A stretch of 64,000 nt of DNA, taken from Methyloprofundus sp. GTDB taxonomy: Bacteria; Pseudomonadota; Gammaproteobacteria; Methylococcales; Methylomonadaceae. The stretch's first letter is position 1. Each line of letters starts with the position of its first letter. The translations under genes were made by a program, and so were the position numbers. Location: the NCBI GenBank assembly GCA_012960135.1, contig DUBW01000040.1, positions 185 to 64,184 on the forward strand, given 5' to 3'. The notes beneath the pieces were generated by a model. It searched no databases and was not told the DNA's origin. It worked only from the letters and a program-made list of their open reading frames with translations. This document shows, one piece after another, positions 6,580 through 7,424 of this stretch.

Positions 6580-6729
6580 TTACCAGATAATTCCGACAGC
6601 AACAATTGACACCACAAAACATAGGGTCGCTAAGTCTTCTATGGCATGTAATAGCCAGTGCTGTTGATCCTGCATAATCATATCAATTCGATTGGTAATT
6701 TGATCTTGCATATGAATTTTATGTTGCAT
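6580..6729 (-). CDS. unannotated 49-aa protein with C-terminal TM helix, immediately downstream of lexA
   Basis: GGAG RBS 7 nt before ATG; MQHKIHMQDQITNRIDMIMQDQQHWLLHAIEDLATLCFVVSIVAVGIIW*; below the size range of the ORF track. Confidence 0.6.
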   Translation of the reverse strand: MQHKIHMQDQITNRIDMIMQDQQHWLLHAIEDLATLCFVVSIVAVGIIW

Positions 6730-6742
6730 TTTAGTTCTCCTA

Positions 6743-7369
6743 TTAATTAATATAACTACGCATTTGTCCGACTAAAACACCTTGTATTTCCACTTGTTCA
6801 GGTCTGTATTTCATAGCAGACATATTTGAATTCGCTGGAATGAGTAATGTTTCATGCGGGTATTGCTCAATAAACTTTAAAGTCGCCTCTGATTTCTCTA
6901 TTAAAGCGACGACAATTTCACCGTTACGTGCACAACTTCTTTGCTCAATAATGACCCAGTCACCGTCAAAAATCCCCTCCTCTATCATTGAGTCCCCTTT
7001 TACTTGCAGGATATAACAAGTCTTATCAGTTTTAATCTGCTCGGGAATATTAATATAACTAATTTGTTCAATTGCTTCTATCGGCCTACCTGCAGCTATA
7101 AAACCCACAAAAGGAGTTCCTGCCGACTCATCACTAGCTTGTAAATATTGCTTCGCCTGTTCCGTTAGCCTGATACCTTTTTGCTTGCGATCAGATGATT
7201 CAACCAGGCCTGCTTCAATCAGCGCTTTAATATGTTTATGTAACGACCCCCGTGAATTTAAACCCAGTGCACTACAGACCTCATCTAAGGTGGGTGGATA
7301 GGGAAAATCCTTGTGGTTATTGAGCAGAAATTCAAAAATATCCTGCTGTTTTCGCGTTAAACCATTCAT
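6743..7369 (-). CDS. lexA: LexA repressor
   Basis: wHTH (LTRKQQ..PPTLDE..LHKHI), cleavage site GFIAAG, catalytic Ser (GDSM) and Lys (ATLK); start placed at ATG 7369 after a GGAG RBS. Confidence 0.93.
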   Translation of the reverse strand: MNGLTRKQQDIFEFLLNNHKDFPYPPTLDEVCSALGLNSRGSLHKHIKALIEAGLVESSDRKQKGIRLTEQAKQYLQASDESAGTPFVGFIAAGRPIEAIEQISYINIPEQIKTDKTCYILQVKGDSMIEEGIFDGDWVIIEQRSCARNGEIVVALIEKSEATLKFIEQYPHETLLIPANSNMSAMKYRPEQVEIQGVLVGQMRSYIN

Positions 7370-7373
7370 TTCT

Positions 7374-7424
7374 GTTCTCCTTTTGTTTTGTTGCAAGTAT
7401 AGTAGGAGAACAAATAAAGAACAA
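7374..7424 (-). promoter_or_regulatory. lexA sigma70 promoter with GTTC-N7-GTTC-type operators
   Basis: Minus strand TTGTTC-N17-TATACT; perfect GTTC-tttattt-GTTC at 7408-7422 overlaps the -35; second near-match at 7374-7388 overlaps the RBS. Confidence 0.7.

Follow-up and report, generated by a model that had tools for sequence, protein, structure and literature searches.

A direct-repeat lexA operator of alphaproteobacterial type predicted in Methylococcales and related Gammaproteobacteria

We describe a 51-bp stretch upstream of lexA in a methanotroph genome that is predicted, with a probability that we put at roughly 0.8, to be the autoregulatory operator of a non-canonical LexA lineage, here called type A. 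The stretch lies at positions 7374-7424 of the window, by which we mean the whole 64,000-nt segment of DNA that was analysed. In the accepted map of SOS boxes, CTGT-N8-ACAG belongs to Gammaproteobacteria and the direct repeat GTTC-N7-GTTC to Alphaproteobacteria such as Rhodobacter, Rhizobium and Caulobacter. LexA is also a textbook case of a regulator whose binding motif drifts in evolution, and as such motif turnover is well known, the type-A operator is not a new kind of system. Judging from sequence comparison, however, the 'alpha' code would be in use in a large and mostly uncultured gammaproteobacterial block, to which methanotrophs, purple sulfur bacteria and the sulfur-oxidising symbionts found in mussels and clams belong. 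SOS regulon prediction must change in type-A genomes, where scans with an E. coli matrix will find nothing.

The lexA gene and its promoter

The lexA gene occupies positions 6743-7369 on the minus strand of the window and encodes 208 amino acids. Its product scores 161 bits against TIGR00498 in a profile search (cut-off 111), and Pfam assigns residues 1-63 to the N-terminal winged-helix domain (LexA_DNA_bind, PF01726, E = 5e-12) and the C-terminus to the self-cleaving peptidase (Peptidase_S24, PF00717, E = 2e-27). A full-length alignment with the LexA structures of E. coli and T. maritima shows a complete cleavage machinery, with the Ala93-Gly94 site, Ser127 (in GDSM) and Lys165 (in TLKF) aligned to the E. 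coli residues. The recognition-helix region at residues 39-47 reads SRGSLHKHI where the aligned E. coli protein has SPNAAEEHL, so that the helix is indeed unlike that of E. coli LexA, as the initial annotation of this DNA had remarked. The same genome, an assembly of 2.5 Mb in 92 contigs that is 90% complete, also carries recA (C7:38120-39082). Among named genomes, the nearest LexA loci belong to methanotrophic gill symbionts of Bathymodiolus and to Methyloprofundus (81-88% identity), followed by Methylobacter, Methylomonas, Methyloglobulus and Methylomarinum (65-75%), which places the window in Methylomonadaceae, order Methylococcales.

Upstream of the gene, the lexA strand reads ...aaccTTGTTCtttatttGTTCtcctacTATACTtgcaacaAAACaaaaggaGAACagaaATG, and two putative operators can be distinguished within it. 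O1, TTGTTCTTTATTTGTTCT (7407-7424, minus strand), holds an exact GTTC-N7-GTTC core, GTTCTTTATTTGTTC, at 7422-7408; this direct repeat has a period of 11 bp and spans the -35 hexamer together with the spacer's upstream half. The putative -35, TTGTTC (7419-7424, minus strand), and the putative -10, TATACT (7396-7401, minus strand), were read from the sequence and are separated by a 17-nt spacer. As this -35 is weak, agreeing with TTGACA at only 3/6 positions, the promoter stays under the threshold of a consensus scan; it is supported by a TATnnT hexamer kept at the same place between both boxes in relatives. O2, GTTCTCCTTTTGTTT (7374-7388, plus strand), is an inverted copy of O1 that appears as AAAC-N7-GAAC on the lexA strand. 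It sits just 3' of the -10, where it overlaps the beginning of the leader as well as the Shine-Dalgarno sequence GGAG (7380-7377), which lies 5 nt ahead of the lexA ATG (7369-7367). The four GTTC-type half-sites form two direct repeats facing oppositely: two arrows, the -10, and two reversed arrows.

The initial annotation had already drawn this picture, with a perfect repeat over the -35, a TTGTTC-N17-TATACT promoter, a second near-match over the ribosome-binding site and no CTGT-N8-ACAG box. Each of these elements was found again at the nucleotide level, the promoter with a -35 too weak to be called by the scan, and CTGT-N8-ACAG has 0 matches across the 64,000 nt. Its estimate that one or two lone matches would arise by chance is likewise close to our own figures, with three exact GTTC-N7-GTTC in the window against 1.33 expected. 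Genome-wide the motif is about two-fold under-represented, at 32 observed occurrences versus roughly 68 expected from base composition. A lone match in the window is insignificant, and the significance of the repeat therefore comes from comparison with orthologues, not from this sequence alone.

For that comparison we extracted 150 nt of sequence preceding lexA in the window and at 76 usable loci, which gave 75 distinct sequences. Exact GTTC-N7-GTTC occurs on the lexA strand in 60 of the 75 (shuffles: mean 0.1, maximum 2), a count that overstates independence, as orthologous promoters are related sequences and not independent events. Allowing up to one mismatch raises the count to 74/75, and an inverted GAAC-N7-GAAC (again with up to one mismatch) follows 25-60 nt downstream of O1 in 63/75. 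Counted from the ATG, the start of the first box falls between -55 and -65, that of the second between -20 and -30. Their start-to-start distance is 33 nt at 43 loci, 34 nt at seven and 44 nt at six, and otherwise 32 or 43-45 nt; these spacings are mostly multiples of the 11-bp period, which places the four half-sites on one face of the helix. The sequences flanking the boxes have diverged freely, while the boxes themselves are kept, and some promoters (loci L016 and L040) carry three or four tandem copies. When the genome was scanned with a matrix built on 59 distinct sites, taken from lexA promoters of the window and its relatives, a set that may itself include O1, O1 was the top site of all 2.5 Mb at 29.0 bits and O2 the third best at 19.0 bits.

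LexA types and the boxes that accompany them

We surveyed 61 Methylococcales genomes, whose families we code f1-f10. Type-A LexA, at 58-100% identity to the window protein, is found in families f1, f2, f3, f8 and f10 with an identical promoter layout. Throughout the last four of these families O2 repeats O1 almost perfectly in inverted orientation, TTGTTCTCTATTTGTTCT ... AGAACAAATAGAGAACA, and the whole operator region makes a near-perfect palindrome of 50 bp. The LexA of family f6 (40% identity) is accompanied by GAAC-N7-GAAC too, that of f4 (43%) by a different palindrome, TTGTCTATAAATAGACAA, and that of f5 (33%) by the canonical box TACTGTTCATAAAAACAGTA; the GTTC-type box is missing from canonical lexA promoters of the same order. 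No LexA was recovered among the genomes searched from f7 and f9, where weak matches were limited to the S24 peptidase domain. Type-A paralogues elsewhere in the genomes carry GTTC-N7-GTTC as well (L206, L207), and one genome (G038) has two identical copies of such a paralogue with this box. The two f4 loci examined more closely, L158 and L159, have a shortened helix region, GESGVHKHIRKL, and a Y-family polymerase gene after lexA; their palindrome, possibly yet another LexA motif, is present in the L158 promoter and less perfect in that of L159.

LexA proteins of other types in these families accompany mutagenesis genes. An imuA-like gene directly follows every sampled canonical lexA of f5 (seven sampled), and genomes of f1, f2, f3 and f8 hold second LexAs, 30-38% identical to the window protein, that head lexA-imuA-imuB-dnaE2 cassettes. 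These second LexAs have operators of their own, either CTGC-N8-GCAG, a variant seen in three genomes of one Methylomonadaceae genus, or ATGTAT-N5-ATACAT. Since the canonical-type LexAs examined head imuA-imuB-dnaE2, we interpret these E. coli-type LexAs as repressors of the mutagenesis cassette and type A as the stand-alone lexA. At six cassette-heading loci from f2, f3 and f8 (L199-L204), the second LexA has the helix YRSDNAAYQHL and its operator is the palindrome (C)ATGTATAAA(A/T)ATACATG, unlike both CTGT-N8-ACAG and the direct repeat. At L207 (G098:C1:4312906-4317500), the type-A paralogue has a GTTC-N7-GTTC box to itself, and downstream of it come genes for a 468-aa DnaQ-like exonuclease fusion and a protein of SRAP/YedK type. 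With these neighbours named from their N-terminal sequences only, this locus is a predicted damage-related operon under the same type of operator.

Outside Methylococcales, no LexA among 400 genomes of the phylum exceeds 44% identity to the window LexA, and named genomes were searched with a 44%-identical relative as the query. The helix SRGSLHK[HQ]IQALI together with a two-box operator was found in Sedimenticola, Sedimenticolaceae, Candidatus Thiodiazotropha (for example tGTTCtctctccGTTCtctttgtgtagaatagaGAACaagtggaGAACa), Chromatiaceae and other Chromatiales, and additionally in Thiotrichales, Thiogranum, Thiohalomonadaceae and Piscirickettsiaceae. A neighbouring LexA clade, which includes Coxiellaceae-like metagenome-assembled genomes, has the helix S[KR]G[TV]VHRYV, and the GTTC layout is present in several of its members (G269, G357, L217, L225). 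A third clade, represented by L172 (G129) and L226, keeps the direct repeat over the -35 with half-sites TTCAC/GTGAA and a different recognition helix, SPRSVSLVSRCLRELADRG; L172 has the inverted copy at the ribosome-binding site as well. The pairings of helix and box are SKGTVHRYV with GTTC, SPRSVSLVSRCL with TTCAC, and SPNAAEEHL or STNSIRGHL with CTGT-N8-ACAG. Thus, the half-site changes with the helix while the architecture stays constant, a pattern that would follow if the repeat were read by the protein encoded downstream. A helix of the form S-[RK]-x-x-[LIV]-H-[KR] is common to type A, to the neighbouring gammaproteobacterial clade (SKGTVHRYV) and to alphaproteobacterial LexA (SKSG[IV]HRLI), and the alphaproteobacterial lexA genes examined have GAAC-N7-GAAC upstream.

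The box is also found at a second gene in sister lineages. GAAC-N7-GAAC or AAAC-N7-GAAC occurs at recA of Sedimenticola, Sedimenticolaceae, Chromatiaceae/Chromatiales and Piscirickettsiaceae, all of which have type-A LexA, and in Sedimenticola and Sedimenticolaceae it lies directly 3' of a -10-like ATAAT hexamer. This provides independent evidence from another gene that the repeat is the type-A LexA box. As some type-A lineages have the recA box and Methylococcales lack it, the regulon differs among lineages.

Taken by itself, a match at the lexA promoter could be an accident, given that one or two are expected per 64-kb window, and it is the recurrence in 60/75 orthologous promoters against 0.1 expected that brings the probability of chance practically to nil. 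The repeat might instead be a promoter element, or the site of some regulator other than LexA, that merely co-occurs with lexA, and because O1 overlaps the -35, its conservation could partly be that of the promoter. We regard this as very improbable: O2 repeats O1 in inverted form 3' of the -10, where a promoter element would be out of place, the half-site follows the LexA helix in related clades, the canonical lexA promoters of the order are without the box, and recA, a classic LexA target, has it in sister lineages. A less remote alternative concerns what LexA reads, namely one large palindrome of four half-sites, to which a LexA tetramer, or pairs spanning the dyad, would bind. The inverted arrangement of O2 and O1, the near-perfect 50-bp palindromes of four families and a spacing of mostly 33 or 44 nt, a multiple of 11 bp, would all agree with it. 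We nevertheless consider it unlikely, as direct-repeat boxes stand partnerless in front of certain lexA paralogues (L206, L207) and also at the recA gene in Sedimenticola and Chromatiaceae, and other promoters (L016, L040) have three or four tandem copies instead. From these lone boxes and tandem copies, the direct repeat seems to be a sufficient unit.

Predicted targets of the box in the Methylococcales genome

Classical SOS genes were located by tblastn with E. coli probes, and the box was sought within 400 nt upstream of each. Matches were 45-73% identical, and gene assignments are thus safe. No box lies within 400 nt upstream of recA, uvrA, uvrB, uvrD, rep, either of two copies of ssb, dinB, ruvB or dnaE in this genome, and recN and dnaE2 were not found by tblastn in the 90%-complete assembly; at other genes, the thresholds used could miss weak or degenerate boxes. 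These results divide the proposal of the initial annotation. Its gammaproteobacterial lexA with an operator of Alphaproteobacteria type is upheld by the footprint, the boxed paralogues, the recA box of sister lineages and the helix. Its non-canonical SOS regulon finds no support in this genome, where recA, uvrA and ssb, which it had proposed to scan for further boxes, are without one, as are the other classical genes located, and recN was not detected.

Of the 32 exact genomic boxes, ten fall outside open reading frames of at least 110 aa, and none except that of lexA lies at a plausible repair-gene promoter. The best hits of the matrix scan outside lexA were inspected and rejected as targets. 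The site at C7:10751 (19.4 bits) is between two convergent gene ends with no Rfam RNA; C86:4021 falls within the gene preceding gmk, in coding sequence for the conserved C-terminal stretch REQVQN; and C41:7597, 5 nt before a DnaQ-like exonuclease gene, is not kept in either of the two orthologues that a search of 41 genomes yielded. Across 41 Methylomonadaceae genomes, TTGTTC-N5-TTGTTC has 42 matches versus 41 for the reversed control, with no enrichment beyond lexA, and the 13 of 30 inspected matches that have a T-rich spacer are all beside a type-A lexA. The only detectable target in this genome is therefore predicted to be the lexA operon, consisting of lexA and a small membrane protein gene. 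A regulon of one operon offers no replication of the site within the genome, and support for the operator rests on orthologues.

The second gene of this predicted operon is an open reading frame of 49 aa at 6580-6729 (minus strand), which starts 13 nt after the lexA stop and is presumably co-transcribed with lexA, and hence under the same operator. Its product is polar at the N-terminus, MQHKIHMQDQITNRIDMIM..., carries a transmembrane helix at the C-terminus (tail-anchored) and matches no Pfam family. Homologues with an xIHMQDQ(V/I)xNRI motif and a hydrophobic tail follow type-A lexA at nearly all Methylomonadaceae loci and also in f2, f3, f8 and f10, bringing the total to five Methylococcales families; no homologue was seen after lexA in the sulfur oxidisers examined. 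By its position, the protein is a candidate damage-induced effector, for example a division inhibitor. Division inhibitors adjacent to lexA are represented by sulA, which follows lexA in Pseudomonas, and small membrane division inhibitors by SidA in Caulobacter and YneA in Bacillus. The gene described here resembles these in being small and beside lexA under a putative LexA operator, and SidA and YneA in encoding a small membrane protein, but the 49-aa product has no detected sequence similarity to them.

We suggest a mechanism in which LexA dimers would sit on O1, which covers the -35, and on O2, which extends from about +1 to the ribosome-binding site, and would exclude RNA polymerase. Binding would probably be cooperative, because all half-sites are on one face of the helix. 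Upon DNA damage, RecA filaments would trigger self-cleavage of LexA at Ala93-Gly94 through the Ser127/Lys165 dyad, and cleavage would derepress the operon of lexA and the small membrane protein. As no classical repair gene located here has the box, the system appears to be a minimal damage-inducible module of two genes in this genome. Methylococcales may thus offer a natural case of an SOS response in which only the repressor and a single small membrane protein are left and recA is no part of the regulon. Methylomonas and Methylobacter can be cultivated, which makes this reading of the operator testable.

Two further promoter regions deserve description. A umuD-umuC-like pair (G000 C41:18150-20100) adjoins an IS66-family transposase fragment. 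Of a canonical SOS box, its upstream region contains just the left half, TACTGTACAC..., and the pair resembles a module gained by horizontal transfer whose cognate repressor this genome lacks. The recA promoters across Methylococcales (L081-L103; G000 C7:37900-38120) have neither type of LexA box and share the element CTATGnGATAAT, CTATG(T/G/C)(G/C)ATAAT, even in families without LexA. The same element is present at recA of Thiodiazotropha and Thiogranum.

Descent of type-A LexA and its relation to known systems

We built two maximum-likelihood trees, of 47 and 68 LexAs, the second including Patescibacteria, Desulfacinum and T. maritima. Type A forms a clade (100/99) of five Methylococcales families with Sedimenticola, Thiodiazotropha, Chromatiaceae, Thiotrichales and Piscirickettsiaceae, and Methylococcales are a single group (96/86) inside a type-A grade of sulfur oxidisers. 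Alphaproteobacterial LexAs form a clade (100/99) that contains no type-A sequence, and the canonical CTGT-binding LexAs of E. coli, f5 and others a third (100/100) on a long branch. LexA phylogeny, which the initial annotation had named as a check, thus sets type A apart from both. The backbone that links the alphaproteobacterial, type-A, neighbouring gammaproteobacterial and Patescibacteria groups is not resolved in these trees.

One account of the operator would be recent horizontal acquisition of an alphaproteobacterial lexA together with its box, an event of the kind reported for Acidobacterium capsulatum. The GTTC-N7-GTTC core is identical, the recognition helices are alike, and the window LexA scores higher against alphaproteobacterial LexA (143 bits, 37% identity) than against that of E. 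coli (103 bits, 31%). Such a transfer is, however, not supported by the trees, since type A has its own clade in both and is not nested among alphaproteobacterial LexAs. Additionally, alphaproteobacterial LexAs have a longer linker (220-225 aa against about 200), and the position of Methylococcales as one group within the sulfur-oxidiser grade fits vertical descent. We therefore judge recent transfer to be improbable.

A wider reconstruction, which we advance tentatively and at somewhat less than even odds, would make the GTTC direct repeat the code native to LexA in a large set of early-branching Gammaproteobacteria (Chromatiales-like sulfur oxidisers, Thiotrichales and Methylococcales), inherited vertically and possibly ancestral to Proteobacteria. 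The CTGT-binding LexA of E. coli type would then be later and derived, and in methanotrophs only the private repressor of mobile imuA-imuB-dnaE2 cassettes. In Methylococcales, the SOS response would have been pared down to two genes, those for LexA and the small membrane protein, with its links to recA and excision repair lost. Type A is relevant to the question of an ancestral or a convergent origin of the direct-repeat motif.

The GTTC-N7-GTTC (GAAC-N7-GAAC) SOS box is attributed to Alphaproteobacteria (PMC8565304, PMC3323433). Type A shares with the alphaproteobacterial system the core motif, the 11-bp period, the box in the lexA promoter, the S-[KR]-x-x-[ILV]-H-[KR] helix and the S24 domain. 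It differs in its separate clade, its shorter linker and its paired inverted boxes flanking the -10, and in this genome also in that recA, uvrA, ssb and other classical targets are without the box. With canonical E. coli-type LexA it has in common the family, the domain architecture, the catalytic residues and the logic of autoregulation, which is here predicted from sequence; it is set apart by 31% identity, a helix other than SPNAAEEHL, the absence of CTGT-N8-ACAG from the window and the 100/100 branch between them.

Our full-text search, whose coverage was incomplete, found no paper on the LexA box of methanotrophs or on direct-repeat LexA boxes in Gammaproteobacteria. A parallel is the non-canonical LexA of Sideroxydans, Gallionella and Nitrosomonadales, which reportedly recognizes GAAC/GTTC half-sites in a palindrome, GAACGaaCGTTC, and is said to control a full-sized SOS regulon. 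Both cases involve a large proteobacterial group that relies on a LexA unrelated to the standard of its class and on GAAC/GTTC half-sites. They differ in that the type-A site is a direct repeat and its detectable regulon in this genome a single operon.

A further direct repeat was observed in another class of the phylum. At three loci (L168, L173 and L188), LexA has the helix AS(T/V)N(A/S)V(S/A)(K/R)AL, and TGTTCAC-N3-TGTTCAC lies upstream of lexA. The period of this repeat is 10, and at one locus it is 11 with an imperfect first copy.
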